Positions 6,918 through 62,638 of a DNA stretch of 64,000 nt are shown here, piece after piece (positions within the stretch are counted from its first letter, which is position 1; each line of letters starts with the position of its first letter). Origin of the DNA: Salinivirgaceae bacterium. Lineage in GTDB: Bacteria > Bacteroidota > Bacteroidia > Bacteroidales > SZUA-534. A program made the translations under genes and the position numbers. Below the pieces are notes generated by a model. The model was given only the letters and a program-made list of their open reading frames with translations, was not told the origin of the DNA and ran no database searches. The stretch lies in NCBI GenBank assembly GCA_041664345.1, contig JBAYKX010000023.1, positions 10,558-74,557 on the forward strand, in the 5' to 3' direction.

Positions 6918-7091
6918 ACCTAAGTTGAGCGATTTGACCCCGAGTCCTCGGGGGAAAAAACGCTTTACTTAGGTATAACCCCGACCTAGAAATTGTTACA
7001 ACATACCAAACAAATGGACAGCATAAAGTAAATTACTTACAATTTCTTAGTCGATTGAGTGATTTGCCCTTCCAAATCGCTCAATTTGGGT
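6918..7091 (+). mobile_element. MITE-like element, family B, copy 1
   Basis: Aligns end to end with the reverse complement of 42975-43139. Imperfect 19-bp terminal inverted repeat acctaagttgagcgatttg / caaatcgctcaatttgggt. Has internal hairpins and no ORF. Overlaps the 3' end of rsmI. Confidence 0.7.
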
Positions 7092-7776: not shown

Positions 7777-8808
7777 TTAATGGGCAAAACGGCGGAAAAC
7801 CAATTCCAGAAAACTTATGGTACTTTTTTGTTTTTGATCCCAAGTAAAGTTGGTGAACAAATAAGCTAACGCTTCGTCCAAATCGGACGACTGATTGAGT
7901 ACATCTATCGTTTTTTCGAATTGCATTTTATTTTTATTAAACAATTCATTGGTAAACCAAATGCGATCGTTGAGCTTTATGGCCGATTTTAAGTTTCGGA
8001 TAGGACTGTCTTTCAGCGCGGAAGCCAGATTTTTATTGTTTTTTATCCCTATTAACGTATCGTTTAATGAGGGAGTTAGCTTCTGAAACTTATCTGCAAC
8101 GATTCCCGATTTTTTATGAGAATCCTTTTCATCCGAGGCGGGTTCTTCCTTTTGGGGCAAATCAGATGGCATCGAGCCGTCAAGCTGCTTTTCCTCATTA
8201 TTGTGGGGTTCAGGAGTGGTTATTTCATTCAGCGATTCGCTAGAATAAGCGGCAACTTCCATTGAATCTTCGGGCAATATTAGTATGGGTTCTTCAGGAA
8301 CAATGGTTTCATGGAAGGTATCCGTTAAAACCGGTTCAGAATCAATTACTGGTGCAATTATTTCTTGTATTGGTTGAATTGAATTTGGTTCTATTTCAGC
8401 CAGTTCTATTTCGGGCTCTGTATTTTGAATTGTCGAATCTATTATATCTTTAACCGTATTAATTTCCACTAATTCAATTACTTCAGCAGTGGATTTTACA
8501 TCGTGATTTTTGGTTTCACGGTTATCGGATACTATTATTTTAGCAATTGCAGGACTCAATGGCAACTCGTCCAAATCGTTTGCAACAGGAATGGTAATGG
8601 AATCGTCATTTTTCTTTAAAAGCAACAATTGGCCATATATATCTTTTGTTTTCGATAGTGCCATATCCACCTCAAACGCAGGAATTTCGCCTTCTTTCGA
8701 AAACTCACTTACAATATCCGTTAGAATTGTTAATTCTTTGTTGATGATTTTTACCAGACTTTTCTTATTCATAACCCGGGATTGTTTTTTATTTGCAAAA
8801 GTAATCAT
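7777..8808 (-). CDS. Hypothetical protein with an acidic, low-complexity central region
   Basis: A long ORF filling the gap between rsmI and the divergent tdk. It has a Glu/Asp/Pro-rich middle section and a more ordered C-terminal ~100 aa. I recognise no family. Confidence 0.5.
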   Translation of the reverse strand: MITFANKKQSRVMNKKSLVKIINKELTILTDIVSEFSKEGEIPAFEVDMALSKTKDIYGQLLLLKKNDDSITIPVANDLDELPLSPAIAKIIVSDNRETKNHDVKSTAEVIELVEINTVKDIIDSTIQNTEPEIELAEIEPNSIQPIQEIIAPVIDSEPVLTDTFHETIVPEEPILILPEDSMEVAAYSSESLNEITTPEPHNNEEKQLDGSMPSDLPQKEEPASDEKDSHKKSGIVADKFQKLTPSLNDTLIGIKNNKNLASALKDSPIRNLKSAIKLNDRIWFTNELFNKNKMQFEKTIDVLNQSSDLDEALAYLFTNFTWDQKQKSTISFLELVFRRFAH

Positions 8809-8908
8809 TGTATTAAACGTGCCTAAAAATAATTTAAGTATAATTGTGAATACTTTCTTACTGACACTAAATACTGTATTTCAAACACAATAAGGCAAAA
8901 ATATAACC

Positions 8909-9484
8909 ATGTTTCTTGAAAAGAACAACAAAATAGTAAAAAAAGGATGGATTGAAGTAGTTTGCGGTTCTATGTTTTCAGGTAAAACCGAGGAGCTGAT
9001 TCGCCGTATGAAGCGGGCAAAAATTGCTAAACAGAAAGTGGAGATTTTTAAACCTAAAATTGATACCCGCTATTCCGAAGTTCAAGTAGTTTCGCACGAC
9101 GAAAATGCGATAATGTCAACGCCGGTTGATAGCCCACGAACTATTTTACTTTTAGCAACCGATGTTGAAGTGGTAGGGATTGATGAAGCCCAATTTTTTG
9201 ATGATGGATTGGTTGAGGTTTGTAATGAGTTGGCAAACCGTGGCATTCGGGTAATTGTAGCCGGATTGGATATGGATTTCAGAGGGAATCCTTTTGGACC
9301 CATTCCAAAATTAATGGCCACAGCCGAATATGTTACCAAGGTTCATGCTATTTGTGTAAAATGTGGCGATTTGGCGCACCATTCGCACCGGTTATCGGAA
9401 AACGACAAGCTTGTGGTGTTAGGAGAATTAGATATTTACGAGCCTATATGCCGCGATTGTTTTCAAAAAGCTATTGGAAAATAG
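8909..9484 (+). CDS. tdk: Thymidine kinase
   Basis: P-loop [21 protein letters not shown], and C-terminal Cys pairs (CVKCG ... CRDC). The 191 aa length fits. Confidence 0.9.
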
Positions 9485-17333: not shown

Positions 17334-17566
17334 GGGAACTTGCAGCGCCTGCTGCGAGAGATTGGAAAACTGGGATGATTGGAAAATGGGAAAGGGTTGC
17401 CAGGTTACAAGGCTGCAGGGTAGAAAGGTAGCAGGGTTACAAGGTAACAAGGGAACAAGGTGGCCGGGTTACAGGGTTACAAGGTGGGAAATTAGGAACG
17501 TTGGAACTTGCAGCGCCTGCTGCGAGACAAGCTGCTGCGAGAGATTGGAAAATTGGAGCAATGAAC
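17334..17566 (+). repeat. Family C intergenic element: two direct hairpin cores bracketing a degenerate octamer array
   Basis: Cores lie at 17335-17373 and 17503-17556 (ggaacttgcagcgcctgctgcgagagattggaaaaytgg). Between them are 8-nt units ttacaagg ctgcaggg tagaaagg tagcaggg ttacaagg taacaagg gaacaagg tggccggg ttacaggg ttacaagg. Confidence 0.7.
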
Positions 17567-17606
17567 ATAAAAAATACCCACCCCAGTAAATTTCAAGAAC
17601 CTACCG

Positions 17607-17788
17607 CAGGGAAATCGCTTTTAAGAATTTCAATTTTAAACACGCTTTTTCGGCGCATGGTTTTTCACAATTTCAATTAAACTGTAGTGCTTGCGCCGAT
17701 TTTATACCGCAAATTCATATACCCCGAGTTGAAACTCGGGACTATTCATATTAAATCCCTCCGGGATTTCTTAAAAGCGAATTCCCTG
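17607..17788 (+). mobile_element. MITE-like element, family A, copy 1 (182 bp)
   Basis: Terminal inverted repeat cagggaaatcgcttttaagaa / ttcttaaaagcgaattccctg with 1 mismatch. Flanked by a perfect 10-bp direct repeat gaacctaccg (17597-17606 and 17789-17798). No ORF. A second copy is inverted at 50110-50293. Confidence 0.8.
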
Positions 17789-17823
17789 GAACCTACCGGG
17801 ATGGGGATTATTGAATAGGGAAC

Positions 17824-20800
17824 TTATTCAATACTGATTTTCTTATAGTATATTTTTTCGGCGGTTGCTATCACCACAAAATAATTGCCCGTAGTAAGCC
17901 TCGAAAGGTTTATTCCTTTGGTTAAATTAACTGATTCATTGCTAAATACAATTTTACCGGTTGCATCCAACACTTTAACCTGTTGTACTTTGGTAACCGG
18001 GTTTAATGCTTTAATATGCAAGAACCCTCTGACAGGATTCGGATAAATGTTAAATGCCTCAGAAGCCTCAACCAGTAATTTAATGCCCAAATCGTTTTTA
18101 ACGAGAATAGCAAAAAAACATGTTATAGTCAATCCGCCCAAATCGCTAGCCTTAATAAGCAATTCATGCAATTGCTTATCGGTAGTAATGGTTTTGTTCA
18201 CTACCAAATTATGGCCGGTAATGGTATAGTTTTTTGTGTCATCCAAGTTAGTTTGAGTATCGGAGGTAAATTCGAAGGTGTGTGAATCGTTCATATCTTC
18301 GTCCTCTACATTCAAAACACCAACCACCGTACCCAGCATATCGGAAACAAAAACCGTATCGTTGCTTAATAAAATGTCGGTTGGGGCTTCGTTAACATTG
18401 TTAATGATTACTTCAAAACTTCTTTCCATGCTGGAATTACCCTCGTCTATAGCTTTTATTCGATAATATAGTTTTGATTTAAATTCATAGTTAAATTCAG
18501 CACCAGATAATAAATTATAACCATCAATTGAAAATGCATTGTTATCATCGGAGCCAATTCCATCAACTAATTCAAATGAATGATTGCCCTGAGAATCTTC
18601 ATCAAATACTTGTAAATTAGCAACTACTGTATTTAATGGCATGTTTTCGTAAATTGTATATCCAATATAACCTATTTCAGTAATCGGGTCATTCATATCG
18701 GTTACCGTTAATACAAACCCCTTTTCAAATGAATCTCCTTCCGAATCAATGGTTTTGACCCTAATTTTTAGTTCATTCTTAGCCTCAAAGTTTTGAGTAT
18801 AAGCTTTTAACTGATTACCTTCAATAGTAAAATAAGTGTTATCATCGGAACCTTCCCCGACTACAAGTTCATAAGTAAAGCTATCGTTGCTGTTTTTATC
18901 AATAGTTGATAACGTGCTTATTGCCGATAAATCAGGCAAGTTTTCAGCAAAACTGGCAAACGACAATTGAATATCGGTAGGTGGATAATTGATGGGAAGA
19001 TACAAGCTCTGTATGTCGTTGGTATAGGTAGCTGTCATAAAACCATAGTATCCGGTACCAAAATACACCGAATCGCCCAAAGCAAATGAAATGGGATTAT
19101 TTCGGTTGTTCCCCAAATTTAGTAAGTCGCCCAAGTTTTCAACTTGATTGGTGCTTGGTTTGTAGCTTACAATATCTTTCTTGTTACCATAACAGATATA
19201 CCCTTTATTCCCAATTCCAATAGCTGTGGCATCATTCACTGAGAGATGTAATCCATCGGCAAAAATTTTCTGTTGCCAGCTATTGGTTGCCGGGTTGTAT
19301 TCCTGTATATCGCTCGATTGCGATGTCCCATTGGAATAGTTGACCCCTCCCGAAACATAACCCTTGCCCTCAACCACAAAGGCACAGGCCGATGTTCTTT
19401 TTGCTCCCGTAAAGGTGGCAATTTCAGACCACGAGTCATGTACGGCATCGTATTTCCAAAAGTCCTTTGTTTCATCCATTGCATCGGCTCCGGTGCCTAC
19501 ATAAGCGGTATCGTTAATAACAAAGCTAACCGCATCGTAACGGGCGGTTCCTGCAAAATTGCCAAGGGTTGTCCATTGATTGGTGGCAGGGTTGTATTCA
19601 TAAAAATCGGGATAGTAAGTAAAGGGGTATTTACTGCCTCCCAAGCCAACGTAACCCTTTCCATTAACAGCAAATGCAACAGCTTCTGTTCTTGCTGCCC
19701 CAGGGAAAGGAGCTACCTTTGTCCATACATCGGTTCCGGCATTATATTTCCAAAAGTCGCTTAACACACTGTCGGCATTTTCGCCCAAACCCACATAAAC
19801 GGTATTATCAATGGTAAAACTTACCGCACTGGAACGGGGAATTCCCCGGAAGGGATTGATTCCCGTTTCATCCACATCAATCAGGTTGATGGTAATGGTG
19901 GCGGTATCGGAAAATTCGCCATCGAAAGCCACTACTTGAAGGTTAAAAGATGGGTTAACTTCGTAATCTAAAAAGAGGTTGTTATTTACCGATATTCCAC
20001 CGGTTGAAGCATTTATAGCAAAAGTATTGTACAAGTTACCGGAAATTATAGCATGCGCTAATACATCGCCATCTAAATCGGAAGCAACAACAGAACCAAT
20101 AATAGTTCCATTCTGCTGGTTTTCTAAAACAGAAAATTCAGTATCAAGAAACTCTATGGATTCGTTTATATTTAAAATATTAATGGTAATTGCTGCGGTG
20201 TCGCTTAATTCTCCATCAGACACTAGCGTTAGAAGTTCAAAAGTTTTGTTTTCTTCAAAGTTTATAGCCGTGGAATCTATTACATAAACAACCCCTGTAG
20301 AGTCAATCACCCCAAAAACCTTATCGAGGCTTGCATGAATAATAGAATAGGTCAATTTTGAATTGAAATCTTCATCGGCAGCAACCAACGTGTCTAAAAT
20401 TGTACTATTATTTGGGTTTTCAGGAATGTTTAAAACTAAATCGGATAGGTGGGGTTTTTCATTTAGATCAATTAAATCTATATCAACTTTAACCGAATCA
20501 ATTAATTGACCATCAGAAACTAAAATTTTTAGATTAAATGATTTGTTTAGTTCATAGCTTAAATATTGTGTGTTTTTAATTTGAATGGCTCCTGTTGTGG
20601 AATTAAGGTCAAACACATTACTTATATTGCCCGAAACAATGGTGTAATTTAATGCATCATTATCTTCATCAAAAGCTTCTAGTTGATAAATAATTGAATC
20701 ATTGGGTAAATTTTCCTCTATTTCTAACTGTTTATAAGGGTTACATATAAGTTCATTAACATTATCAATTTGAATATTAACGAAAGAAGTATCAACAAAT

Positions 20801-22194
20801 TCCCCATCAGAAACTTGTACATATAAACTGAAATTTTGATTCTCTTCATAGTTGATTAAAGAAGAATCCATAACATAAATAACACCGGTCGAGTCAACTA
20901 CTCCAAATGCACCAGATGGATTTGCCTGAACAATAGAAAAAACATGGGTATCATTATAATCTTCGTCAGAAATTAAAATGGTATCAACAATTGAATTGTT
21001 TAAAGGATTTTCATCTATCAACTCTTGCAAATTATTGGTCAAAACTCTTTCATTAACATCATTAATTTTAATGTTGTAGCCTATGAGTTTGCTTGATGAT
21101 CCATCATATATTTTAATTATTGCGTACAATGAATCGTTTCGTTCAAAGTTAAAGTAACTTGAATCAATAATCGAAATCTGCCCTGTTTCACTATCTAATT
21201 TAATTGCATTATCATCATTCCCATCAAAGACCGAAAACTCTAGAATTCCATTACCATAATAATAAGCATCAACAGTATCAAGTATCTGATTATTATTTTG
21301 ATTTTCATTTATTTGGATTTCTTGATTATAAGTATAAAGTTCAGGCCCTTGATATTCATAAGCACCTATATCAATTCTTCCATATTGAATTCTTTCATTA
21401 CCTTCAAAATCATAATTAGTTATTAAAGAATCATTTGTAAAATTTGGGTCGCCCATATTTATGCAGGGTGATGTATTTTGTAACGCATAAGGATTTGCAC
21501 CGGAACCCACAAATAAAGGATCAACATCTATATTGCCATCAGCTTGTAATTGAGCCCCCACAATATCACAATTGGTTATTTTAGGAGTTGAGTTGTATGG
21601 ATCTAAATTTGCCTGCCCATTGCCTGAAACAATGCAGTTTGATATTTCAGATAAGGAGTAATTTATTTGAATTCCAGAAACTTGATTATCCGATATGGTA
21701 TTGTTTGTTATTTTAGGTGAAGAAAAATCACAACTAATACCAATCCAATAATTTTTTACAATTAGGTTCCCTTCGATTCGTGGAGATGCTTGATAACAAT
21801 AAATTGCTTCATTATTGTTACGTGTAATTAAATTATTAGCTACAATAAGTTTATTCATATTATAAACACACAGTGCACTACCATAGCCATCAAGCCAATA
21901 ACTGCCAAAGGCATTCCCAAACTGCATAATACAGAATTCAATTTTTGAAGTATCGTTTGAGCTGGGTGTTTCTAAAAACCGAATACCACCCCAACCACCA
22001 CTGATATAAGTCAATACCGAGTCTTTGGCTGTAAAAATTATCCTATTTTGTGCCGTTCCTTGGGCTAAAATCCTTCCTTGCACATTGAGTTTGTAATGCC
22101 CCTGAAACTCTACATAAACCCCCGGGTTTATGGTTAAGGTGCGGGCATTGTTAATGGTTAAGTTGTTATAACTTTTATGGTGTCGGCACTCCAT
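17824..22194 (-). CDS. C-terminal fragment of giant T9SS-secreted adhesin (beta-helix module 4, cadherin-like repeats, Kelch-like beta-propeller, more cadherin-like repeats, T9SS C-terminal domain)
   Basis: Its first residues (NNLTINNARTLTINPGVYVEFQGHYKLNVQGRIL) continue the repeat that the upstream ORF breaks off in. Cadherin-type domain ends are present (INDVNE, IDNVNE, LIDLNEKP, VTDMNDP). Kelch-like repeats (FWKYN..WT, FYEYNPATNQW). C-terminal IYPNPVRGFLHI... sorting domain. Confidence 0.8.
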   Translation of the reverse strand: MECRHHKSYNNLTINNARTLTINPGVYVEFQGHYKLNVQGRILAQGTAQNRIIFTAKDSVLTYISGGWGGIRFLETPSSNDTSKIEFCIMQFGNAFGSYWLDGYGSALCVYNMNKLIVANNLITRNNNEAIYCYQASPRIEGNLIVKNYWIGISCDFSSPKITNNTISDNQVSGIQINYSLSEISNCIVSGNGQANLDPYNSTPKITNCDIVGAQLQADGNIDVDPLFVGSGANPYALQNTSPCINMGDPNFTNDSLITNYDFEGNERIQYGRIDIGAYEYQGPELYTYNQEIQINENQNNNQILDTVDAYYYGNGILEFSVFDGNDDNAIKLDSETGQISIIDSSYFNFERNDSLYAIIKIYDGSSSKLIGYNIKINDVNERVLTNNLQELIDENPLNNSIVDTILISDEDYNDTHVFSIVQANPSGAFGVVDSTGVIYVMDSSLINYEENQNFSLYVQVSDGEFVDTSFVNIQIDNVNELICNPYKQLEIEENLPNDSIIYQLEAFDEDNDALNYTIVSGNISNVFDLNSTTGAIQIKNTQYLSYELNKSFNLKILVSDGQLIDSVKVDIDLIDLNEKPHLSDLVLNIPENPNNSTILDTLVAADEDFNSKLTYSIIHASLDKVFGVIDSTGVVYVIDSTAINFEENKTFELLTLVSDGELSDTAAITINILNINESIEFLDTEFSVLENQQNGTIIGSVVASDLDGDVLAHAIISGNLYNTFAINASTGGISVNNNLFLDYEVNPSFNLQVVAFDGEFSDTATITINLIDVDETGINPFRGIPRSSAVSFTIDNTVYVGLGENADSVLSDFWKYNAGTDVWTKVAPFPGAARTEAVAFAVNGKGYVGLGGSKYPFTYYPDFYEYNPATNQWTTLGNFAGTARYDAVSFVINDTAYVGTGADAMDETKDFWKYDAVHDSWSEIATFTGAKRTSACAFVVEGKGYVSGGVNYSNGTSQSSDIQEYNPATNSWQQKIFADGLHLSVNDATAIGIGNKGYICYGNKKDIVSYKPSTNQVENLGDLLNLGNNRNNPISFALGDSVYFGTGYYGFMTATYTNDIQSLYLPINYPPTDIQLSFASFAENLPDLSAISTLSTIDKNSNDSFTYELVVGEGSDDNTYFTIEGNQLKAYTQNFEAKNELKIRVKTIDSEGDSFEKGFVLTVTDMNDPITEIGYIGYTIYENMPLNTVVANLQVFDEDSQGNHSFELVDGIGSDDNNAFSIDGYNLLSGAEFNYEFKSKLYYRIKAIDEGNSSMERSFEVIINNVNEAPTDILLSNDTVFVSDMLGTVVGVLNVEDEDMNDSHTFEFTSDTQTNLDDTKNYTITGHNLVVNKTITTDKQLHELLIKASDLGGLTITCFFAILVKNDLGIKLLVEASEAFNIYPNPVRGFLHIKALNPVTKVQQVKVLDATGKIVFSNESVNLTKGINLSRLTTGNYFVVIATAEKIYYKKISIE

Positions 22195-25100
22195 ACTACA
22201 TCTTCATTGGGGAGTTCAAAATATTCATTTGAATTGAGTACATAAATTTCGGTAATGAGTGTATCGGATAAAACGCCATTGCTCACTTTTATCTTCAAAT
22301 GGTAGTTAGTTTCTGCCTGGGCCTCTGTTGGAACCCATTTTATTGTATCGTTTTCAATTGACAAACCACTCGGGGCCTCAATTATGGTGTAAGTTACTCC
22401 TGAAGGAAAACTTATCGGTTTTATTGCTTCTGCATAAACGGAATCAAAACGGATGTGCTTTTTTCTGATTGTACGGAAAACTAAAAACGAATCAGGGTCG
22501 CTTTGCAGTTCGTATGCACCCATATCAATTGTAGGGTTTGTTCCCCCTTCGTAAATCCTTGGGTTACCGGCTATGTCCATGTTTATTTCCAAACTATCCG
22601 TATCCCAATCGGGTCGCCCGGAATTTAAACAAGGTGATGTTTTTTGTAACGCATAAGGATTTGAACCGGATACCACAAATAAAGGATCCACATCTATATT
22701 GCCATCAGCTTGTAAATTAGCTCCCACAATATCGCAATTGGTTATTATAGGAGTTGAGTTGTATTGTTCTAAATTTGCCTGCCAATTTCCTGAAACAATG
22801 CAGTTTGTAAGTTGCGGAGACGAGCTTTGTAAAGATATTCCACAATAACCTTGATTATCCGATATGGTATTGTTTGTTATTTTAGGTGAAGAATTATAGC
22901 AATTAATACCATTCCCATAATTTTTTACCATCAAGTTCCCTTCAATTAATGGTGATGCATTATTACAATAGATTGCAGAATTCCAACTAGATGATCTGTT
23001 TTTTGCAATTAAATTATTGGTAATTTTAATTTTGTCAAAACCATAAATACATAATGCGCCTCCATGACCATCAAGCCCATCACTGCCAAAGGCATTCCCA
23101 AACTGTATGATACAGAATTCAATTTTTGATGTATCGTTTGAGCTGGGTGTTTCTAAAAACCGAATACCACCCCAACCTCCACTAGTATCAGTTAATACCG
23201 AGTCTTTGTCTGTAAATGTTATCCTGTTTTGTACCGTTCCCCGTGCTAAAATTCTTCCTTGTACATTTAATTTATAATGCCCCTGGAATTCCACATAAAC
23301 GCCTGGGTTTATGGTTAAGGTACGGGCATTGTTAATGGTTAAGTTATTAATAACTTTTATGGTGTCGGCACTCCATACAACATCTTCATTGGGGAGTACA
23401 AAATATTCATTTGAATTGAGTACATAAATTTCGGTATTGAGTGTATCGGATAAAACGCCATTGCTCACTTTTATCTTCAAATTATAGTTTGTTTCTGCCT
23501 GGGCCAATGTTGGAACCCATTTTATGGTATCGTTTTCAATTGCCAAACCACTTGGGGCTTCAATTATGATGTAAGTTACCCCTGAAGGAAAACTTATCGG
23601 TTTTATTGCTTCTGCATAAACGGAACCAAAACGGATGTGCTTTTTCCCGATTGTACGGAAAACTAAAAACGGATCAGGGTCGCTTTGCAGTTCGTAGGCA
23701 CCCATATCAATGGTAGGGTTTGAACCAAAAGTATAAATCCTTGGGTTACCGGCTATGTCCATGTTTATTCCCAAACTATCCGTATCCCAATCGGGGCGTC
23801 CGGTATTTAAACAGGGTGATGTATTTTGTAACGCATAAGGATTTGCACCGGAACCCACAAATAAAGGATTTATATCCATATTGCCATCAGCTTGTAAATG
23901 AGCCCCCACAATATCGCAATTGGTTATTTTAGGAGTTGAATAGTATTGAGCTAAATTTCCATCCCCATTGCCTGAAACAATGCAGTTAGTAAGTTGCGGA
24001 GAGGAACTAACTAAATATATCCCATAATCTTGATTATCCGATATGGTGTTGTTTGTTATTTTAGGTGAAGAATTATCACAATAAATACTATAATAATAAT
24101 TTTTTACAATTAGGTTCCCTTCGATTCGTGGAGATGCATGATAACAAAAAATTGTGTAGTATCTGTTACGTATAAATAAACTATTAGCTACAATAAGTTT
24201 ATTCATATTAGAAACACACAATGAACTTCCAAATTGATCGAGCCAATCGTCACTGCCAAATGCATTCCCAAACTGCATAATACAGAATTCAATTTTTGAA
24301 GTATCGTTGGCACTTGGTGTAGAATAAAACCTAATTCCACCCCAACCACCACTGGTACCAGTTAATATTGAGTCTTTGGCTGTAAAAGTAATTCTGTTTT
24401 GTGCCGTTCCCCGGGCTAAAATCCTTCCTTGTACATTGAGCTTGTAATGCCCCTGAAACTCCACATAAACCCCCGGGTTTATGGTTAAAGTGCGGGCATT
24501 ATTAATGGTTAAGTTATTAATAACTTTTATAGTGTCGGCACTCCATACAACATCTTCATCGGGGAGTTCAAAATATTCATTTGAATTGAGTACATAAATT
24601 TCGGTATGGAGCGTGTCGAATAAAACGCCATTGCTCACTTTTATCTTCAAATTGTAGTTTGTTTCTGCCTGGGCCAATGTTGGAACCCATTTTATGGTAT
24701 CATTTTCAATTACCAAACCACTTGGAGCCTCAATTATGGTGTAAGTTATCCCTGAAGGAAAGCTTATCGGTTTTATTGCTTCTGCATAAACGGAACCAAA
24801 ACGGATGTGCTTTTTTCCGATTGTACGGAAAACTAAAAACGGATCGGGATTGCTTTGCCGTTCGTATGCGCCCATATCAATTGTAGGGTTTGTTCCCCCT
24901 GTGTAAATCCTTGGGTTACCGGCTATGTCCATGTTTATTCCCAAGCTATCAATATCCCAATCGGGTCGCCCGGTATTTAAACAGGGTGATGTATTTTGTA
25001 ACGCATAAAGATTTGAACCGGAACCCACAAATAAAGGATCTGCATCTATATTGCCATCAGCTTGTAAATTAGCTCCCACAATATCGCAATGGGTTATTTT

Positions 25101-25690
25101 AGGAGTTGAATTGTCTTGGTATAAATTTCCATACCCATTGCCTGAAACAATGCAGTCTGTTATTTCAGGAAAGGAACTATCAAAAATATTAATACCATAA
25201 CCTCCATTATCCGATATGGTATTGTTTATTATTTTAGGTGAAGAATTATTGCAACTAACACCAGTCCAATAATTTTTTACAATTAAGTTTCCTTCAAATA
25301 GAGGTGATGCATTATAACAATAGATCGCTTCATTATTGTTATGTGTAATTAAATTATTAGCTACAATAAGTTTATTCATATTATAAACAAACAATGCACT
25401 ACCAACTCCATCAAGCCAATCGCTGCCATAGCCATTTCCATATTGTATAATACAGAATTCAATTTTTGAAGTGTCGTTTGTATTTGGTGTATCAATAAAC
25501 CGTATGCCATGCCAACCACCACTGGTATCCGTTAAAACAGTATCCTTTGCCGTAAAAGTTATCCTATTTTGAGCCGTTCCCCGGGCTAAAATCCTTCCTT
25601 GTACATTTAGTTTGTAATGCCCTTGAAATTCCACATAAACACCCGGGTTTATGGTTAAAGTAATGCCATTATCCACAGTAATTTCTCCGG
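21340..25690 (-). repeat. Tandem ~1.17-kb intragenic repeats (about 3.6 copies)
   Basis: The anchor string atggttaa recurs at 25651, 24481, 23311 and 22130, giving spacings of 1170, 1170 and 1181 nt. Long stretches are identical between copies by eye. Confidence 0.9.
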
Positions 25691-25850
25691 TTACTTTTAC
25701 GGTGTCGGCACTCCAGGTTTCGTTGGTGGTAATGTTTCCGCTTTTTTCAATTACAGTTTGGGCTTGTAGGGTTGTGCCCAATAAAAAAATAAATGGGAGT
25801 AGTAGATTCTTCATTTGTGCTATTTTGTTTAAAAAACCTTGGATGCTCAA
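22158..25850 (-). CDS. N-terminal fragment of the same giant adhesin (signal peptide + three tandem beta-helix/Ig-like modules)
   Basis: The likely real start is the ATG at 25814 (MKNLLLPFIFLLGTTLQAQ); the track start at 25850 is a TTG. Contains three ~390-aa near-identical modules. The ORF ends in ...VVWSADTIKVITT*, where intact modules read ...VVWSADTIKVINNLTINN. Confidence 0.8.
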   Translation of the reverse strand: MSIQGFLNKIAQMKNLLLPFIFLLGTTLQAQTVIEKSGNITTNETWSADTVKVTGEITVDNGITLTINPGVYVEFQGHYKLNVQGRILARGTAQNRITFTAKDTVLTDTSGGWHGIRFIDTPNTNDTSKIEFCIIQYGNGYGSDWLDGVGSALFVYNMNKLIVANNLITHNNNEAIYCYNASPLFEGNLIVKNYWTGVSCNNSSPKIINNTISDNGGYGINIFDSSFPEITDCIVSGNGYGNLYQDNSTPKITHCDIVGANLQADGNIDADPLFVGSGSNLYALQNTSPCLNTGRPDWDIDSLGINMDIAGNPRIYTGGTNPTIDMGAYERQSNPDPFLVFRTIGKKHIRFGSVYAEAIKPISFPSGITYTIIEAPSGLVIENDTIKWVPTLAQAETNYNLKIKVSNGVLFDTLHTEIYVLNSNEYFELPDEDVVWSADTIKVINNLTINNARTLTINPGVYVEFQGHYKLNVQGRILARGTAQNRITFTAKDSILTGTSGGWGGIRFYSTPSANDTSKIEFCIMQFGNAFGSDDWLDQFGSSLCVSNMNKLIVANSLFIRNRYYTIFCYHASPRIEGNLIVKNYYYSIYCDNSSPKITNNTISDNQDYGIYLVSSSPQLTNCIVSGNGDGNLAQYYSTPKITNCDIVGAHLQADGNMDINPLFVGSGANPYALQNTSPCLNTGRPDWDTDSLGINMDIAGNPRIYTFGSNPTIDMGAYELQSDPDPFLVFRTIGKKHIRFGSVYAEAIKPISFPSGVTYIIIEAPSGLAIENDTIKWVPTLAQAETNYNLKIKVSNGVLSDTLNTEIYVLNSNEYFVLPNEDVVWSADTIKVINNLTINNARTLTINPGVYVEFQGHYKLNVQGRILARGTVQNRITFTDKDSVLTDTSGGWGGIRFLETPSSNDTSKIEFCIIQFGNAFGSDGLDGHGGALCIYGFDKIKITNNLIAKNRSSSWNSAIYCNNASPLIEGNLMVKNYGNGINCYNSSPKITNNTISDNQGYCGISLQSSSPQLTNCIVSGNWQANLEQYNSTPIITNCDIVGANLQADGNIDVDPLFVVSGSNPYALQKTSPCLNSGRPDWDTDSLEINMDIAGNPRIYEGGTNPTIDMGAYELQSDPDSFLVFRTIRKKHIRFDSVYAEAIKPISFPSGVTYTIIEAPSGLSIENDTIKWVPTEAQAETNYHLKIKVSNGVLSDTLITEIYVLNSNEYFELPNEDVVWSADTIKVITT

Positions 25851-25957
25851 TTTAGTGTATATTAACTTGGTGTTCTGAGGTTGTTTTACAAGTGGTTATA
25901 CTTGCGAAAATAACCATAATAATGTGATATGCAAAAAGTATGTGGAACATTTAGTGT

Positions 25958-26268
25958 AAAGTTGGGGATTTGGAAAGTTGGGAAGTTGGGGAAAGGGTAG
26001 CAAGGTAACAAGGTTGCAGGGTTACAAGATGGAAAATTGGGGACGTTGGAACTTGCAGCACCCGCTGCGAGACATGCCGCAGAGAGAGATTGGAAAATTG
26101 GGAAAATGGGAAGTTTCCAAGCCCAAAGGACGTTGGAAAGTCGGTAGTTATTCCTTTTTAACTTTCCATAGCCACATTGACGTTTCCATGTCCTCCGGAC
26201 GATGGAAAGTCAGTGCTGATGTGGAAAAGTCGTTGAAATTTGAAATTCTGGAAAGATGGGAAATTGGA
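25958..26268 (+). repeat. Family C intergenic element (heptamer/octamer-type units + hairpin core + extra hairpins)
   Basis: Reads aagttgg gaagttgg..., then tagcaagg taacaagg ttgcaggg ttacaaga, then the core ggaacttgcagcacccgctgcgagacatgccgcagagagagattggaaaattgg at 26048-26101. Next come the hairpins tggaaagt...actttcca and tttccat...atggaaa. Confidence 0.65.
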
Positions 26269-26270
26269 AA

Positions 26271-26316
26271 GGTTGAAAAATGGAATTATTTCTTTCCATT
26301 TTTCAACCTTTTTTAT
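26271..26316. terminator. Strong hairpin, probable (bidirectional) terminator
   Basis: Perfect 13-bp stem ggttgaaaaatgg (26271-26283) / ccatttttcaacc (26296-26308), followed by ttttttatt. It lies directly 3' of the minus-strand gene ending at 26320. Confidence 0.65.
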
Positions 26317-28998: not shown

Positions 28999-29844
28999 AT
29001 GAACTCATTTTTAGAATTATTCCATTATACTTTTATCAATCACGCCTTATTGGCTGCTGTTTTATCGAGCATTATATGTGGAATTTTGGGAACTTATATT
29101 GTGAGCAAACGCATGGTATTTATCTCCGGTGGAATCACCCATGCTTCGTTTGGTGGTATTGGAATGGCATTTTACTTTGGTTTGTCTCCTTTTATAGGAG
29201 CCACAGCGTTTGCCTTGCTTTCGGCACTGGGCATTGAATGGATATCGAAAAAAGGCAACATTCGCAACGATTCCAGCATCGGTATTCTTTGGTCGTTGGG
29301 TATGGCTATCGGGATTATTTTTGTTTACATCACACCCGGTTTTACACCCAATTTAATGAGTTACCTGTTTGGAAGTATATTAACTGTTGGAGGCTCTGAA
29401 TTATGGATAATGACAGTGCTTGCCGGGGTAATCATCTTGTTTTTCACCCTATTCTACCGACCTATACTTTTCTTTGCATTCGACGAAAGCTTTGCCCGTT
29501 CGCAAAAGGCTCCGGTGGCTTTCCTGAATTACACCCTTATATTGCTCATTGCCTTTGGAATTGTGATAAATATAAAAGTGGCCGGAATCATTTTGGTAAT
29601 GAGCATGCTTACCCTGCCCCAAAACACAGCCAACCTGTTTTCAAACAATTTTAAACACATACTAATTTACTCCATATTGATTAGTTTAGCCGGAACATTG
29701 GCTGGACTGGCAGGCTCGTTCTGGTTAGGAATTCCATCGGGAGCAGCCATCATTTTTACGCTTTCGCTCATATTTTTTATTGCCAAAATTGCCAAGCTTA
29801 TTTTTGATAGAAGGAAAAGAGAGAAAACAGAGATTAGAAGTTAG
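28999..29844 (+). CDS. znuB: Zinc/metal ABC transporter permease (ABC-3 family)
   Basis: 281 aa, multi-TM, follows znuC by 3 nt. The last codons and the TAG stop lie inside the first units of the downstream heptamer array. Confidence 0.85.
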   Translation: MNSFLELFHYTFINHALLAAVLSSIICGILGTYIVSKRMVFISGGITHASFGGIGMAFYFGLSPFIGATAFALLSALGIEWISKKGNIRNDSSIGILWSLGMAIGIIFVYITPGFTPNLMSYLFGSILTVGGSELWIMTVLAGVIILFFTLFYRPILFFAFDESFARSQKAPVAFLNYTLILLIAFGIVINIKVAGIILVMSMLTLPQNTANLFSNNFKHILIYSILISLAGTLAGLAGSFWLGIPSGAAIIFTLSLIFFIAKIAKLIFDRRKREKTEIRS

Positions 29845-30246
29845 AAGACCGAAGTTGGAAGTCAGAAGAATGAAGACGGAAGTTAGAAGTCAGAAGTTGG
29901 AAGACCGAAGCTAGAGTTTAGAAACAAGAAAACAGAGACAAGAAAACAGAGACAAGAAACCAGTACCAAAAGTTGGAAAATGTGGCAGCCCTAAAAGGGC
30001 GAAAGAACATAGCCAAGGGCAACGCCCTTGGTAAAGTAGCACAAGTAATAAGCGGTGCATCCAACTAAGTTGCAATGGAATGGAAACATAACATGCACCG
30101 CAATATAGATAGAGCAATTGGAAGTTGGAAGTTAAAGATTAGAAATTAGGAATTAGATGTTAGAAACTAGAAGCCAGATAATAGAATCTAGAAACCAGTA
30201 ACTAGCATCCAGCAACCAATAACCAGTAACCAGTAACCAGCAACCT
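29824..30246 (+). repeat. Family C composite element: 20 degenerate heptamers, ~150-nt hairpin-rich unique core, 18 degenerate heptamers
   Basis: Parsed directly. The left arm 29824-29963 reads aaaacag agattag aagttag aagaccg aagttgg aagtcag.... The right arm 30115-30240 reads caattgg aagttgg aagttaa agattag ... taaccag taaccag taaccag. Confidence 0.8.
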
Positions 30247-30369
30247 AAGAAGTAAACGTTAATAATAAAATAAAGACCGCTAATTTATATTCTGAACAAC
30301 TTGACCGTTTAATAGTTTATAGTGCAAAACTGCTGCAACAAAAAAAATGTAGCTTAAAAATAAAAACCA

Positions 30370-42974: not shown

Positions 42975-43139
42975 ACCCAAATTGAGCGGTTTGGAAGGGC
43001 AAATCACTCAATCGACTAAGAAATTGTAAGTAATTCACTTTTTACTGTTAATCTTTTTGGTGAGCTACAACAATTTCTAGGTCGGGGTTAAACCTAAGTA
43101 AAGCGCTTTTTCGCTGCGCTTAAATCGCTCAACTTAGGA
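42975..43139 (-). mobile_element. MITE-like element, family B, copy 2 (inverted relative to copy 1)
   Basis: Its reverse complement aligns with 6918-7091, and the terminal ~65 nt are almost identical. It has the same terminal inverted repeat. The internal hairpin cassette differs. Confidence 0.7.
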
Positions 43140-48570: not shown

Positions 48571-50043
48571 ATGAAAAATAAATATATAATAGTATTTGTA
48601 TTAACGGTCTTACTATTTTCTTGTACTGATAATTTTGAGGACTATAATACCGATAAAAAAAACCCTGAAGCAGTTGCAGGTGAGATGTTGTTTAGTAATG
48701 CTCAGAAAGAACTATCCGACCAATTGAGTTCAACCAGTGTGAACCAGAATGTGTTTAAGCTTTGGGCGCAATATTGGACTGAAACCCAATATACCGAAGA
48801 ATCAAACTATAACATTGTAAAAAGGACACAGCCCGATTGGAAGTTCCGTGTTTATTATCGTCAGATTTTAACCGACTTGCAAGAATCAAAAAAGCTTATT
48901 GCTCAAGCTGTGCCGCTCACTGAGGAAGAAAGGTTTGAAAATGCAAATAAGATTGAGATAATTGAGATGCTCACTGTATTTGCATACCAAAACTTAGTTG
49001 ATATTTTTGGTATGGTTCCTTATTCCGAGGCTCTGGATATCGATAATTTATATCCTGCTTATGATGATGGCCTCACTATTTATAGAGATTTAATTGTAAG
49101 GTTAGATGCTGCCATTGCTGGTATGGATGCAACGCATGGCAGTTTTAGCGCTACCGAAGATTTCTATTATCATGGAAATGTAAATGCTTGGATTAAATTT
49201 GCCAATACCCTGAAAATCAAACTTGCCATTAATTTATCGGATGTTGACCTTACTCTTGCTGGAGCTACAATTACAAGTGCCCTTGCTGGTGAAGGGGTAT
49301 TTACGTCGAGCATTGATGATGCAACAATGACTTATAAATCGGCGGTTCCAAATACAAATCCATTGTATGTTGATATAGTTTTATCGGGCCGCGATGACTT
49401 TGTTCCAGCAAATACATTGATTGATACCATGAATGCTTTGAATGATCCGCGCAGAGCCCAATATTTTACTTTGCATGATACTTCATCGGTAAATGGTGTT
49501 GAAAAATTAGCTTATGTAGGCGGTCGTTTTGGTTATACCAATTCCTATTTAAATTATTCCCACATTAATCCAAACATATACAAAGCTGAGGCTCCCGGTT
49601 TAATATTGACCTATACCGAATTGCTGTTTTATTTAGCTGAAGCCGCTGAACGTGGGTTCACTGTTCCGCTATCTGCTGAGGAATATTACAATGATGGTAT
49701 TGTTTCATCGTTCGATTTTTGGGGTGCCACCGATGTTGCTACCTATTTAGCAAACCCTGATGTAGCTTACTCAACCGCACCCGGTACGTGGAAAGAGAAA
49801 ATCTGTCTTCAATCATGGTTAGCTTTTTATACCAGAGGCGATGTAGCTTGGAATACTTACCGTAGATTAGATGGTTTAAAAATGAACATACCACGGCGGC
49901 CAAAAACTTTGGATGGATTGCCTCCAAGAAGGTTCACATTCCCCATTCAAGAACAATCATTGAATAAAGGAAAATACGACTTAGCCGCCGAAGCTGTGGG
50001 TGGCGATTTTTTGGAAACCCGAATCTTTTGGGATCTGCAATAA
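48571..50043 (+). CDS. SusD/RagB-family nutrient-binding lipoprotein
   Basis: Lipobox LLFSCTD. It lies immediately downstream of the SusC-like gene. The 490 aa length and TPR-like helical composition are typical. Confidence 0.85.
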   Translation: MKNKYIIVFVLTVLLFSCTDNFEDYNTDKKNPEAVAGEMLFSNAQKELSDQLSSTSVNQNVFKLWAQYWTETQYTEESNYNIVKRTQPDWKFRVYYRQILTDLQESKKLIAQAVPLTEEERFENANKIEIIEMLTVFAYQNLVDIFGMVPYSEALDIDNLYPAYDDGLTIYRDLIVRLDAAIAGMDATHGSFSATEDFYYHGNVNAWIKFANTLKIKLAINLSDVDLTLAGATITSALAGEGVFTSSIDDATMTYKSAVPNTNPLYVDIVLSGRDDFVPANTLIDTMNALNDPRRAQYFTLHDTSSVNGVEKLAYVGGRFGYTNSYLNYSHINPNIYKAEAPGLILTYTELLFYLAEAAERGFTVPLSAEEYYNDGIVSSFDFWGATDVATYLANPDVAYSTAPGTWKEKICLQSWLAFYTRGDVAWNTYRRLDGLKMNIPRRPKTLDGLPPRRFTFPIQEQSLNKGKYDLAAEAVGGDFLETRIFWDLQ

Positions 50044-50052
50044 ATGAAATTT

Positions 50053-50106
50053 AAAAAAAGGCTGCCTATTTAGACTATTGAGTCTTAATTAGGCAGCCTT
50101 TTTTTG
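50053..50106 (+). terminator. Rho-independent terminator after susD-like gene
   Basis: Long imperfect hairpin aggctgcctatttagac / gtcttaattaggcagcct flanked by an A-run and a T-run. Confidence 0.75.
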
Positions 50107-50109
50107 TAA

Positions 50110-50293
50110 CAAAGAAATCGCTCCTAAAAAATCCCGTTAGGGATTTAATATGAATAGCCCTGGGTTTCAACCCAGGGATCAAGTTTTCATGGTATAAAAT
50201 CGGCGCAAGCACTACCGTTTAATTGAAATTGTAAAGAAACCATGCGCTGAAAACGGGAATTAAAAATTGAAATTTTCCCAAGCGATTTCTCTG
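50110..50293 (-). mobile_element. MITE-like element, family A, copy 2 (184 bp, inverted)
   Basis: Aligns along its whole length with the reverse complement of 17607-17788. Termini caaagaaatcgct / agcgatttctctg. The hairpin stems differ from copy 1 by paired (compensatory) substitutions. Confidence 0.75.
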
Positions 50294-50351
50294 GCCTAAA
50301 AAGACTTCTTAGTCTTATTTAGGCAGCCCTTTTTGTCCGCAAAATTTTTAC

Positions 50352-52325
50352 CTATTGCTTAACAAACGTGGCTTTTGAAATACCACTATTTGTTTCAATA
50401 GATATTAAATACATGCCAGCTTCTAAATCGGTTACATCAATACTAGCTTTCTCATTATCAATGTTTTTGCTAAGCACCAATTGACCCATACTGTTATAAA
50501 TATGGGCAGTCTGAATTATTTCACCCGTTAATTCAACCTCCAATTGGTTAGATGCTGGATTTGGATAAATTGAAAAATTGACCTTTTTAGAATCTCCAAC
50601 TGAAATGTATTCCGAAAATTCCAATCTATCAATACTAAAGGTAGGAATAGCTTTAATGTTCAGTCTTATAATTTGCTGTCCTTGTGTCATATTAATAGTA
50701 ACAGTTACCGGTTGCATTGCGGTTGAACTGGTGGTTTTAGGTGCCGTTATTAATGGGGAAGAAACCGAACCAATTTTTAATTGCATTTTACCGCCGCCAG
50801 AGGTTGAGGCTAAATATGCTGTAACCGAATAAGTACCTGTTTTAGCAACATCCACGGTATATTCCAGCCATTCGCCCACTTCTACATTATAAACATAATA
50901 CATGGCGTCCGATTTTTTAATATCAACCCCATCGGTACGGTAAACACCACCTTCGTTTACAAAGTCAATATCGTGAAAGGTCAATAATTCGCCGCCGGTA
51001 TCATAGTTTTCGGCTTCTAAAACGCCGGGAATAGGAATAGGGGTTCCAGAGTAAGCAGAACGTTCCGTGCCAATCCTGAATAATTTCATTGGATACGATG
51101 GGATTGTATCCTGGGTATAAACATCCACAATACGGTAATAGCTATCTTTGAATGGCTCCGTGTTACGGTCAATGAAAGTAGTTCCCGATGTTTGTTTCAA
51201 TTCTCCAATAACGGCAAAAACGGTATTCAGCATCTTTTTTTCAACCAAAACTTTCTCAAGTAAACCGGCGCTGGCCCGGCTGGTCCACGAAACCTGAATG
51301 GCGGTGTCATCCACGGTAGTTAGTTTCACAGCGGTTATCGATGAATCGGATGCATGAATTAAAATATCTTTCATGTCGTTCCATTTGGCATTTTTCCGCT
51401 GCAATACCTGAAACCAGCCATCATCGTCCCATACGGTAAAGGCAAAACCATGTTTTAATGCTTGTTCCGTATAAGTGGCATAGTAAAACATCCGGGAATT
51501 ATAATCGCAATCCCACATGGCTCCAAATTCACCAATCAGTACTGGAATGTTGTGCGTCTGTGACCAAGTTTTAACACCAGCCATTTGATTTATCATGGCA
51601 TTTACGTCGCTCGTACTGCCCCAAATGCCGGTACTTTCTCCAGCAAAAGCCCAAGGGTCATACGAGTGGTAATTTCCTATTAAATAGGGATCATCTGTAT
51701 TTGGAATAGCGGCAGCTTTTAAATCAGCTGAGCTGCTCCATCCAGCTCCTGAATAAATAACCAGTCTGGTTGGATTTGCTTTGCGTATAATTCCCAAAAC
51801 ACGTGCATTCAATTCATCCACTTGCGCTACAGTTATTGCCCCATGTGGTTCATTTAAAATTTCGAATAGTAATTTTTCTGATTTATCCTTGAATCGATCG
51901 GCAATTTGGACCCAAAGCGAATCAAACCGGGCTTTTTGCCCGGCATAATCATCTTTTATCCAGCTGTCGTGGTGGGCATTAATAATTACAAATAAATCAC
52001 GGTCAAGACCCCAATTCACAATCTCTTCGACCCTATTTAAAAACGTAGCGTTAATAGTATAGGGCGAAGTGGACGAAAGATGATTGCCCCATGTAACAGG
52101 AACGCGTACGGTTTTAAATCCGGCTTCTTTATACATATCAGAATAATACTCCTGAGCCTTGCCTGCCCATTCACCTTCATTGGGTGCATCCAACGTATTA
52201 CCCATATTTATGCCACGCTCCATGGCCACAATTGCTTGTTGCGCTGTTATTTGTGCTTGTATGCTTATGGTACAAACAAGCATTGCCATTAAAATGGTAC
52301 TTCTTTTTGTTGTAGTATTTTTCAT
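50352..52325 (-). CDS. GH5 endoglucanase/glycanase with CBM6-like module and T9SS C-terminal domain
   Basis: GH5 acid/base LLFEILNEPH and nucleophile region LIGEFGA. A CBM6-like segment (LEAENYDTGG...YRTDGVDI). C-terminal FSIYPNPASNQLEVEL sorting domain. Confidence 0.85.
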   Translation of the reverse strand: MKNTTTKRSTILMAMLVCTISIQAQITAQQAIVAMERGINMGNTLDAPNEGEWAGKAQEYYSDMYKEAGFKTVRVPVTWGNHLSSTSPYTINATFLNRVEEIVNWGLDRDLFVIINAHHDSWIKDDYAGQKARFDSLWVQIADRFKDKSEKLLFEILNEPHGAITVAQVDELNARVLGIIRKANPTRLVIYSGAGWSSSADLKAAAIPNTDDPYLIGNYHSYDPWAFAGESTGIWGSTSDVNAMINQMAGVKTWSQTHNIPVLIGEFGAMWDCDYNSRMFYYATYTEQALKHGFAFTVWDDDGWFQVLQRKNAKWNDMKDILIHASDSSITAVKLTTVDDTAIQVSWTSRASAGLLEKVLVEKKMLNTVFAVIGELKQTSGTTFIDRNTEPFKDSYYRIVDVYTQDTIPSYPMKLFRIGTERSAYSGTPIPIPGVLEAENYDTGGELLTFHDIDFVNEGGVYRTDGVDIKKSDAMYYVYNVEVGEWLEYTVDVAKTGTYSVTAYLASTSGGGKMQLKIGSVSSPLITAPKTTSSTAMQPVTVTINMTQGQQIIRLNIKAIPTFSIDRLEFSEYISVGDSKKVNFSIYPNPASNQLEVELTGEIIQTAHIYNSMGQLVLSKNIDNEKASIDVTDLEAGMYLISIETNSGISKATFVKQ

Positions 52326-62469: not shown

Positions 62470-62635
62470 CAGTTCTTCTTCTGTCTCCTGGTTGCTGGTT
62501 GCTCGTTACTGGTTGCAGGGTTTCAAGGTTTCAGGGTTGAAGGGTTAAATGGTTACAAGGTTAAATTGTTACTATCCAGCTTCTAATCTCTAATCTCTAA
62601 CTTCTAACTTCCAACTTCCGACTTCTAGCTTCCAT
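62470..62635 (-). repeat. Family C composite element (heptamers - octamers - heptamers), reverse orientation
   Basis: The minus strand reads aagctag aagtcgg aagttgg aagttag aagttag agattag agattag aagctgg. Next come the octamers taacaatt taaccttg taaccatt taaccctt caaccctg aaaccttg aaaccctg, then caaccag taacgag caaccag caaccag. Confidence 0.75.
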
Positions 62636-62638
62636 TTT

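Follow-up and report, generated by a model that had tools for sequence, protein, structure and literature searches.

A recurring, oriented heptamer-array cassette with a hairpin core at the 3′ ends of znuB and other genes of a Salinivirgaceae bacterium

Among the long simple repeats of bacteria, heptanucleotide arrays are some of the commonest; the cyanobacterial ones, called STRR, were reportedly described by Mazel et al. in 1990. Work by MacGregor in 2015 (PMC4679880) documented heptamer arrays, of TAACTGA or of mixed units, in Beggiatoaceae, Cyanobacteria and five Bacteroidetes, and the same article reviews the binding of heptamer repeats by CspB, with one protein per unit. Other systems of interest here are small and palindromic. 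The repetitive extragenic palindromes (REPs) of Bacteroidetes that belong to subclass 2.6 of the tyrosine transposases associated with REPs (RAYTs) comprise a GCTAG followed by CGCGAGCG-TCC-CGCTCGTG and similar sequences, which fold into a stem of 8 bp and a loop of 3 nt (Quentin et al. 2018, PMC6006769; Di Nocera et al. 2013, PMC3733652). The Acido-Lenti-1 motif was defined by Weinberg et al. in 2010 on the basis of 89 copies, found in Acidobacteria and Lentisphaerae and in some cases close to group II introns, and was listed by these authors as a likely non-cis-regulatory RNA. In this regard, we analysed 64,000 nt of a Salinivirgaceae bacterium (assembly GCA_041664345.1, contig JBAYKX010000023.1, positions 10,558 to 74,557; the whole stretch is called the window, and coordinates count from its first letter), where a heptamer array, a structured core and a second heptamer array lie in the spacer between znuB and lpd. 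At about even confidence, we read this element as a non-autonomous repeat cassette, in which slippage-driven heptamer arrays of the STRR/LSSR class are combined with a strand-specific REP-like hairpin core and copied between gene 3′ ends. It will be called A-type, to keep it apart from a miniature inverted-repeat transposable element (MITE) of about 190 nt (B-type) and from a 25-nt hairpin found in octamer arrays (C-type).

The cassette follows znuA, znuC and znuB, and its parts are the following:

28999-29844, plus strand: znuB, an open reading frame (ORF) for an ABC-3 family metal permease (PF00950), whose homologues are named zinc/metal ABC permease; listed for context
29824-29963, plus strand: left heptamer array, 20 phase-locked units of the AAGNNRG type, 76% purine, its gained part from about 29837
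29842-29844, plus strand: TAG stop codon of znuB, formed by the final three bases of unit 3 (AAGTTAG)
29966-30112, plus strand: conserved aperiodic core, 147 nt at znuB, from CCAAAAGTTGGAA to ATAGATAG, common to metagenome contigs L017/L055 (89%) and L022 (82%)
29988-30000, plus strand: small hairpin Ha, GCCC-TAAAA-GGGC, predicted in folds of both strands
30001-30012, plus strand: 12-nt linker GAAAGAACATAG, ending in an ATAG tag immediately 5′ of Hb
30013-30031, plus strand: hairpin Hb, CCAAGGGC-AAC-GCCCTTGG, with an 8-bp stem and a 3-nt loop
30052-30101, plus strand: long hairpin GCGGTGCAT...ATGCACCGC, with a 9-bp stem and a 32-nt interior, kept in all three copies of the core
30115-30246, plus strand: right heptamer array, 18 units of AAGTTGG/AGATTAG types drifting to three TAACCAG

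The periodicity of both arms is far above chance. Self-match at lag 7, compared with 5000 shuffles of the same stretch, was 0.62 against 0.34 in the left arm (z = 7.7) and 0.71 against 0.30 in the right one (z = 10.5), values reached by none of the shuffles, and Tandem Repeats Finder (TRF) returned periods of 7, 14, 21 and 28 nt. The 151 nt between the arrays showed no period (self-match 0.24, z = -1.2). Every one of the 20 left units starts with A and ends in G, and 16 of the 18 units of the right array (30115-30240) have a terminal G. The original prediction of a composite, non-coding element, made of 20 + 18 degenerate units whose sequence drifts while their phase is kept, is thus borne out: stop codons occur in all three frames of both strands in both arms, and copies of the core differ by indels that are not multiples of three, which also rules out as a gene the 68-aa ORF that crosses the core on the minus strand. 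The same degeneracy with kept phase sets the arrays apart from a plain microsatellite, and their 7-nt units, joined head to tail without spacers, from CRISPR, with its repeats of 24-48 nt and unique spacers. That the array supplies the znuB stop codon was also correct. As for the 20-unit left array, the parse stands, but the first two units do not belong to the array: they are native znuB codons that fit the frame by chance, since homology with the znuB of the closest relative runs to 29836, and the gained sequence starts at about 29837.

The same prediction took the core to be unique, and here the analysis led elsewhere, as the array-core-array layout recurs at no fewer than two other gene ends (L017/L055 and L022) and the hairpin module inside the core scores above the threshold of Rfam family RF01687. 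Scanning of JGI metagenome contigs for CATAGCCAAGGGCNNNGCCCTTGG yielded 14 loci, two of which, on Salinivirgaceae contigs, contain the core in full (about 145 nt, 82-89% identical):

L017 copy, after a proA-like gene, with a yggS-like gene downstream, sense to the proA-like gene: core 89% identical
L022 copy, after a fabH-like gene and facing a convergent DHFR-like gene, sense to the fabH-like gene: core 82% identical

All three copies keep a fixed order, in which the TAG stop codon of a same-strand gene is followed by AAGNNRG units, the core and YAACCAG units (of TAACCAG and CCACCAG types in L017 and L022). In L017, 22 phase-locked units can be counted from the stop codon. Moreover, L017 and L022 have in common, with one mismatch, the 25 nt of left array nearest to the core, and the copied unit therefore includes heptamers. 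The proA copy was found 100% identical in contigs of ENA ERZ27249449 and Logan SRR6484324, and because these samples also hold the window contig, the znuB and proA copies very probably reside in one genome. Judging from a relative with a ProA of 84% identity (L057), where the same stop codon precedes a different array (AAGCTAG, AAGTCCC, AAGATAG, four AAGACCG and others), the array at the proA locus keeps its position while its unit sequence turns over.

The window also contains an array of the same build that has no core:

62472-62658, minus strand: coreless array, starting from the TAG stop codon of the ORF at 62639-63433 with nine AAGNNRG heptamers, followed by seven octamers of the TAACCTTG type and CAACCAG heptamers

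This array has the same polarity as the znuB cassette and is identical in three assemblies. With two further loci of 7/8-nt arrays, at 17336-17560 and 25951-26290, the window alone holds four, so that a pattern confined to znuB, which would have spoken against a repeat element, is not what is found; the four loci in 64 kb and the proA locus in the same samples agree with the many loci per genome known for heptanucleotide arrays. Two scans of viral contigs with the patterns of the core and of the B-type module returned either nothing or only chance matches to a ribosome-binding site plus ATG.

The znuB locus was also compared with that of relatives. By their names, the ZnuB homologues and the ProA of the sister locus come from metagenome-assembled genomes (MAGs) of Salinivirgaceae and Bacteroidales. 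In the closest relative (ZnuB 94% identical; three JGI contigs) the znuB-lpd spacer measures 114 nt and the element is absent, homology with the window stopping at 29836 and resuming at 30292, so that about 455 nt stand here in place of 44 nt there. Relatives at 83-88% have no arrays in their 82-91-nt spacers, and a more distant one (L012, 81%) has a different short array in the same place, with 8-mers that begin within the stop codon and are followed by 7-mers. Between species, the differences consist of presence or absence of arrays or of full turnover of their units. The C-terminal tail of ZnuB varies in all homologues, which is why an array can adjoin this ORF. In L012, an ORF with a PF05635 (23S_rRNA_IVP) domain is inserted at 8761-9120, between znuA and znuC.

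An assembly artefact, or a chimera of repetitive reads, is hardly credible as the origin of the cassette. Repeat arrays do break assemblies, as seen in two contigs (L056 and L057) that end inside perfect heptamer runs. However, the units at znuB are degenerate enough for unique assembly, a 621-nt region of the window recurs with 100% identity in ENA, JGI and Logan assemblies, and a fifth agrees with them over the 525-nt znuB-lpd spacer; since the region is unchanged in five independent assemblies made with different pipelines, the concern about an artefact that accompanied the original prediction finds no support. The comparison of unit numbers proposed there as a sign of a variable-number tandem repeat showed no length difference in two arrays over three to five assemblies.

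Similarity between units decays with the distance that separates them, from 0.71 to 0.45 over 10 units, and perfect runs occur at array ends and in relatives (three TAACCAG at znuB, four AGACGTG in L017, four AAGACCG in L057). Slippage or unequal exchange by whole units would fit this decay, the multi-unit periods, the perfect runs and the breaks in assemblies. Regarding the latter, the contig ends lie at 2617-2685 of L057 (four AAGACCG) and at 2748-2835 of L056 (four AGACGTG); arrays of this kind thus break up short-read assemblies, and MAGs will contain too few of them. As head-to-tail 7-nt repeats that are intergenic and longer than expected by chance, the arrays behave as heptanucleotide arrays, and their AAGNNRG and YAACCAG units match no unit of a named family (CCCCAGT, TTGGTCA, CAACAGT, TAACTGA). 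They had been regarded as a repeat of no described kind, a claim that does not survive: mixed-unit intergenic heptanucleotide arrays, absent in close relatives, have been described for Cyanobacteria, Beggiatoaceae and some Bacteroidetes (PMC4679880).

A database search with the element had been suggested and proved informative for the core. In the whole window, Rfam gave one match at gathering threshold, RF01687 (Acido-Lenti-1), at 29987-30031 of the minus strand, which covers the full model (1-46) with 41.6 bits against a gathering score of 37 (E = 5.2e-6) and spans Ha, linker and Hb. The L022 copy also scores above the threshold (39.0 bits), and the L017 copy below it. The architecture of the family is found on the minus strand as CCAAGGGC-GTT-GCCCTTGG, GCTATGTTCTTTC and GCCC-TTTTA-GGGC. 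In both copies above threshold, at znuB and in L022, Rfam's model lies on the antisense strand of the gene upstream. A detailed view of the published seed (Weinberg 2010, Additional file 5) indicates that the copies occur in tandem clusters with a spacing of 70-240 nt, like REP clusters, and that on the modelled strand, among 70 distinct rows, 38 A·C oppose 8 G·U. Because A·C outnumber G·U, the helices are better on the other strand, and Acido-Lenti-1 probably folds on the strand opposite to that of the Rfam model; this mismatch puts in question the annotation of RF01687, not the match itself. Read on the opposite strand, which at znuB is the sense strand, the motif begins with a small hairpin and ends with one of 8 bp, and the 12-nt linker between them closes with (A/G)TAG.

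Such an order resembles that of REPs, with some deviations. The ATAG tag is found in 29 of 29 aligned modules, and the canonical REP tag, GT[AG]G at 0-2 nt 5′ of the hairpin foot, is not; subclass 2.6 REPs also depart from the canonical tag, with GCTAG and GGTAG. The Hb stem is fully paired over 8 bp with a loop of 3 nt, and two of its first four bases (CCAA) are G or C, against three in the published rule. Within the other two hairpins, the Ha stem of L022 shows a compensatory change (GCCCC/GGGGC), and a C-to-T change in the long hairpin of L022 gives U·G on the sense strand. The long hairpin is predicted by the minus-strand centroid fold of the window core and by the sense-strand fold of L022, not by the plus-strand minimum-free-energy fold of the window. 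Compared with shuffles, the core folds with z = -3.3 on the plus and -2.1 on the minus strand, and the whole cassette about equally on both (z = -3.9 and -3.7). The right array is predicted to pair with itself, AAGUUGG-type with UAACCAG-type units, in 5-bp helices with 2-nt bulges between them. Two other structures were discarded: a long rod of left and right arms, whose pairing is weak, the right arm pairing with itself instead, and a plus-strand closing helix AGUUGGA/UCCAACU, which is not kept in L022. Altogether, predicted folding does not separate an RNA role from a role as single-stranded DNA. Scans for sigma-70 and Bacteroidetes TAnnTTTG promoters inside the element were negative on either strand, as was the search for an intrinsic (U-tract) terminator on the sense strand of the core.

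Modules with a similar order occur widely in Bacteroidota. The 20-nt pattern GGGATTTAATATGAATAGNCC is present in genomes of Bacteroidales, Marinilabiliales, Chitinophagaceae, Saprospiraceae and Cytophagales, and a module made of (A)AATCCC-loop-GGGATTTAATATGAATAGCC plus an 8-bp hairpin in Bacteroidales/Marinilabiliales, Chitinophagaceae, Saprospiraceae and Dyadobacter (genome-contig matches L031-L050). A covariance model built from the pattern matches detected 32 modules in 324 kb, many of them as inverted pairs 90-200 nt apart (for example L043 5325-5383/5470-5528 and L033 145-203/282-340). Covariation is strong: in their alignment, 92.6% of the cells are paired and 11 of 15 pairs have changes on both sides, a result that none of 500 shuffles reached. 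G·U exceed A·C on the modelled strand, 27 to 10, as counted in the model-based alignment, the raw MAFFT count being blurred by shifts in loop length. In 17 of 20 cases, the module has the same sense as the ORF upstream of it. Rfam 15 reported no family at threshold for the Bacteroidota modules, and matches below threshold tie two of about 12 B modules to Acido-Lenti-1.

In the window and its relatives this module appears within the B-type element:

17600-17793, minus strand: B1, a MITE of about 190 nt with terminal inverted repeats (TIRs) CAGGGAAATCGCTTTTAAG
50106-50298, plus strand: B2, a MITE of about 190 nt with the same TIRs
L045 2697-2890 and L047 608-801: B-type relatives with the same TIRs

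Three of the four copies (B1, L045 and L047) are flanked by 10-bp target duplications, CGGTAGGTTC, CAGAGTAAGT and CTAAAGAGTC(T), and because of these and of its TIRs the B-type element is a genuine MITE. Its interior has an order like that of the znuB core: small hairpin, AATATGAATAG as the linker ending in ATAG, 8-bp hairpin, spacer and long hairpin. B2 lies between two long, mutually similar terminator-like hairpins (AAGGCTGCCTA...TAGGCAGCCTTTTT) at 50058-50105 and 50296-50335, which belong to the convergent genes 48571-50043 and 50352-52325. In a Chitinophagaceae MAG (CAVOGF01; L037 3150-3620 and L041 3950-4560), purine-rich heptamer arrays of about 17 units at most (AAGAATG / GAGAAAT), in the same frame, stand directly upstream of a B-type module; heptamers are also found downstream of it in L037, and in L041 the element lies between copies of an 11-nt direct repeat (ACAATAACAAG).

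Other repeats of the window were recorded alongside. The C-type hairpin GGAACTTGCAGCGCCTGCTGCGAGA, at 17335-17359, 17503-17527 and 26048-26072, is always inside octamer arrays with GGTTACAA / GGAAAATT units, and a 113-nt block of array plus hairpin is duplicated with 82% identity at 17451-17563 and 25996-26108. A dispersed, MITE-like repeat of 138 nt occurs in inverted orientation at 6954-7091 and 42975-43112 (89% identity), with the ends ...TTGAGCGATTT / AAATCGCTCAA..., of which AAATCGCT is shared with the B-type TIR. Finally, four tandem coding repeats of about 1170 nt, 62-94% identical, occupy 21441-25719 within a giant gene for a surface protein with Beta_helix/Cadherin domains (minus-strand ORFs 17824-22194 and 22158-25850); the gene has one product of at least 2675 residues in assemblies and two ORFs in the list for the window.

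How could such a cassette arise? As a non-autonomous repeat, the reading that we prefer, its arms would expand and be renewed by slippage during replication or by unequal exchange, whole units at a time. Units ending in TAG on the sense strand would close any reading frame that they touch, and because of this an array can sit directly against an ORF. Its centre would be a strand-specific REP-like palindromic module, in which Ha, the 12-nt linker with its terminal ATAG tag and the 8-bp Hb are followed by the long hairpin, and core and nearest heptamers would be copied together from one gene 3′ end to another. The route may have been recombination between similar arrays, used as homology arms or landing pads, or a single-strand enzyme of the HUH/RAYT type; the coreless array at 62472-62658 is a candidate landing pad, and its polarity would fit. 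A Salinivirgaceae-like lineage would thus have gained the cassette in the znuB-lpd spacer. For the host, the expected consequence is a long 3′ untranslated region (3′ UTR) of znuB with stable hairpins, which may be neutral or mildly stabilising.

Several observations weigh against this proposal. Neither the znuB array (five assemblies) nor the array at 62.5 kb (three assemblies) is polymorphic in length. The units are also too orderly: among 92 units from seven arrays, G7 is found in 88, A1 in 73 and a G at position 4 in none, and these arrays accumulate 174 substitutions relative to the array consensus and 0 indels. Neutral slippage and decay of a once-perfect repeat do not explain such a position-specific pattern, so that either the G|AAG junction is needed for the copying of units or the 7-nt register is under selection. 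No RAYT/Y1 signature (HuH...Y(IV)xxNP) was found near any copy in the 440 kb of DNA searched, and no TIR, target-site duplication (TSD) or transposase was found for the core. Moreover, the elements are oriented by their upstream gene and not by one strand of the genome, and this gene-linked orientation fits a role at the RNA level at least as well as a selfish one.

Such a role is the substance of another explanation, possible if somewhat unlikely, in which the element functions in the 3′ UTR: the purine-rich, unstructured (G|AAG-N3)n platform would be bound in a 7-nt register by a single-strand-binding protein of the cold shock (Csp), S1, RNA recognition motif (RRM) or TRAP-like kind, and the core would protect or define the mRNA 3′ end. 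Binding of heptamers by CspB, one protein per unit, offers a precedent (PMC4679880). A role in the 3′ UTR would account for the start of all A-type cassettes and of the coreless array at the stop codon of a same-strand gene, for the predominance of related hairpin modules sense to the upstream ORF (17/20), and for the fact that within the window, which has no switch in GC skew, elements point both ways, each with its own gene. The excess of G·U over A·C on the sense strand (27 vs 10 in the Bacteroidota module; 38 vs 8 in the Acido-Lenti-1 seed, in favour of the non-Rfam strand) points in the same direction, although an equal G·T asymmetry is expected for a single-stranded DNA substrate. The retention of A1 and G7, the exclusion of G from position 4 and the lack of indels also suit a bound register, as do the AAGAATG frame adjoining a related module in the Chitinophagaceae MAG and the array that an 84%-identical relative retains at its proA locus. 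On the other hand, the closest relative lacks the element at znuB, unit sequences and counts vary freely between loci, the sense strand of the core has no U-tract terminator, and the related 8-mer arrays with the C-type hairpin at 25951-26290 are antisense to their genes. A bolder form of this explanation, speculative and unlikely in our estimate, holds that the 7-nt register is functional and that (G|AAG-N3)n single-stranded platforms with a sense hairpin module make up an undescribed class of 3′-UTR cassettes in Bacteroidota, in which a protein bound in heptamer steps would define or protect mRNA 3′ ends; the cassettes would spread by means of their own arrays as homology arms, and Acido-Lenti-1 would be their hairpin module, modelled on the wrong strand.

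The core could also be an ordinary MITE mobilised by a DDE transposase, that is, a diverged copy of the B-type element inserted into a pre-existing heptamer array. This is improbable. The B-type element has the same internal order, together with TIRs and 10-bp target duplications in three of four copies, and AAGTTGG-type units flank the znuB core on both sides; yet nhmmer with a profile of the four B elements had no match to the core at E up to 10, the covariance model R1, made from the B module, reached only 10.8 bits (E = 2.6), and the core as a diverged B-type MITE was rejected. The absence of TIRs and TSDs from the three core copies counts against it too, and so does the fixed order in which left and right arrays are of different types, since insertion at random would not lead to it. 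The B family and the znuB core thus appear parallel in architecture only. More improbable still is a gene for a trans-acting small RNA (sRNA) on the minus strand, the class to which Rfam assigns Acido-Lenti-1, with incidental arrays. The Rfam match does lie on that strand, and Weinberg et al. did list the motif among likely non-cis-regulatory RNAs; but the published seed has its 38 A·C against 8 G·U on precisely the modelled strand, its copies are numerous and tandemly clustered, neither strand of the element has a promoter-like site, and the copies are always sense to an upstream gene.

Whichever explanation prevails, a recurring oriented cassette with a structured core offers a concrete system in which selfish and functional explanations of heptamer arrays can be confronted. 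Arrays bearing TAG set the stop codons of the ORFs that they adjoin, which matters for gene calling and for the variable C-terminal tails of proteins. The identification of Acido-Lenti-1 as a probable REP-like palindromic repeat of the opposite strand is a side result with its own use. Some of the constituents are already known, such as mixed-unit intergenic heptamer arrays, including a few from Bacteroidetes (PMC4679880), and the hairpin module, which is in a named Rfam family. As far as the literature consulted and Rfam show, not described before are the recurring oriented cassette of TAG stop, AAGNNRG array, 145-nt core and YAACCAG array, the drift of the units, free of indels and specific to positions, the REP-like character of Acido-Lenti-1 and its probable annotation on the wrong strand, and the wide Bacteroidota module.

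The cassette shares with Acido-Lenti-1 the hairpins of 8 bp and 4-5 bp, the 12-nt linker with a conserved GCUA (TAGC on the other strand) and its multicopy nature, but it is found in Bacteroidota instead of Acidobacteria and Lentisphaerae, and as part of a larger core of 145 nt flanked by heptamer arrays. Pneumococcal BOX elements have a variable number of boxB modules. Like them, and like MITEs such as the B-type element, the cassette is small, non-coding, structured, dispersed among intergenic regions and built of modules, its internal or flanking repeats varying in number; in contrast, its core has no TIRs or TSDs, and what varies is an array of 7-nt units instead of a 45-nt module. In Nostoc, small dispersed repeats (SDR) nested in tandem heptameric repeats were reportedly described by Elhai et al. 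in 2008, likewise short, mobile-looking elements inside heptamer arrays; these cyanobacterial repeats are said to measure 21-27 nt, against about 145 nt with three hairpins in the znuB core. REP, BIME and REPIN elements (PMC6006769, PMC3733652) have in common with the core a conserved tag immediately 5′ of an 8-bp stem that is paired throughout and has a loop of 3 nt, an extragenic and multicopy distribution and strand-asymmetric pairing, and the related modules share with REPs the inverted pairs 90-200 nt apart and the tandem clusters; different here are an extra hairpin upstream and a long one downstream, and heptamer arrays, which are not described for REPs. The closest likeness in the arms is to STRR/LSSR arrays (LSSR: Mrazek et al. 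2007; PMC4679880), with which they share the 7-nt period, the intergenic position, many loci per genome, mixed unit types within a spacer, an overlap with stop codons, since units carry stops in all frames, and close relatives that have the same gene order without arrays. In comparison with them, the cassette has other units, strongly degenerate yet free of indels, in a fixed left-right order of types, and it embeds a structured, conserved core that is copied along with the nearest units; moreover, its arrays stand at gene 3′ ends, whereas those of ‘Maribeggiatoa’ lie upstream of start codons.

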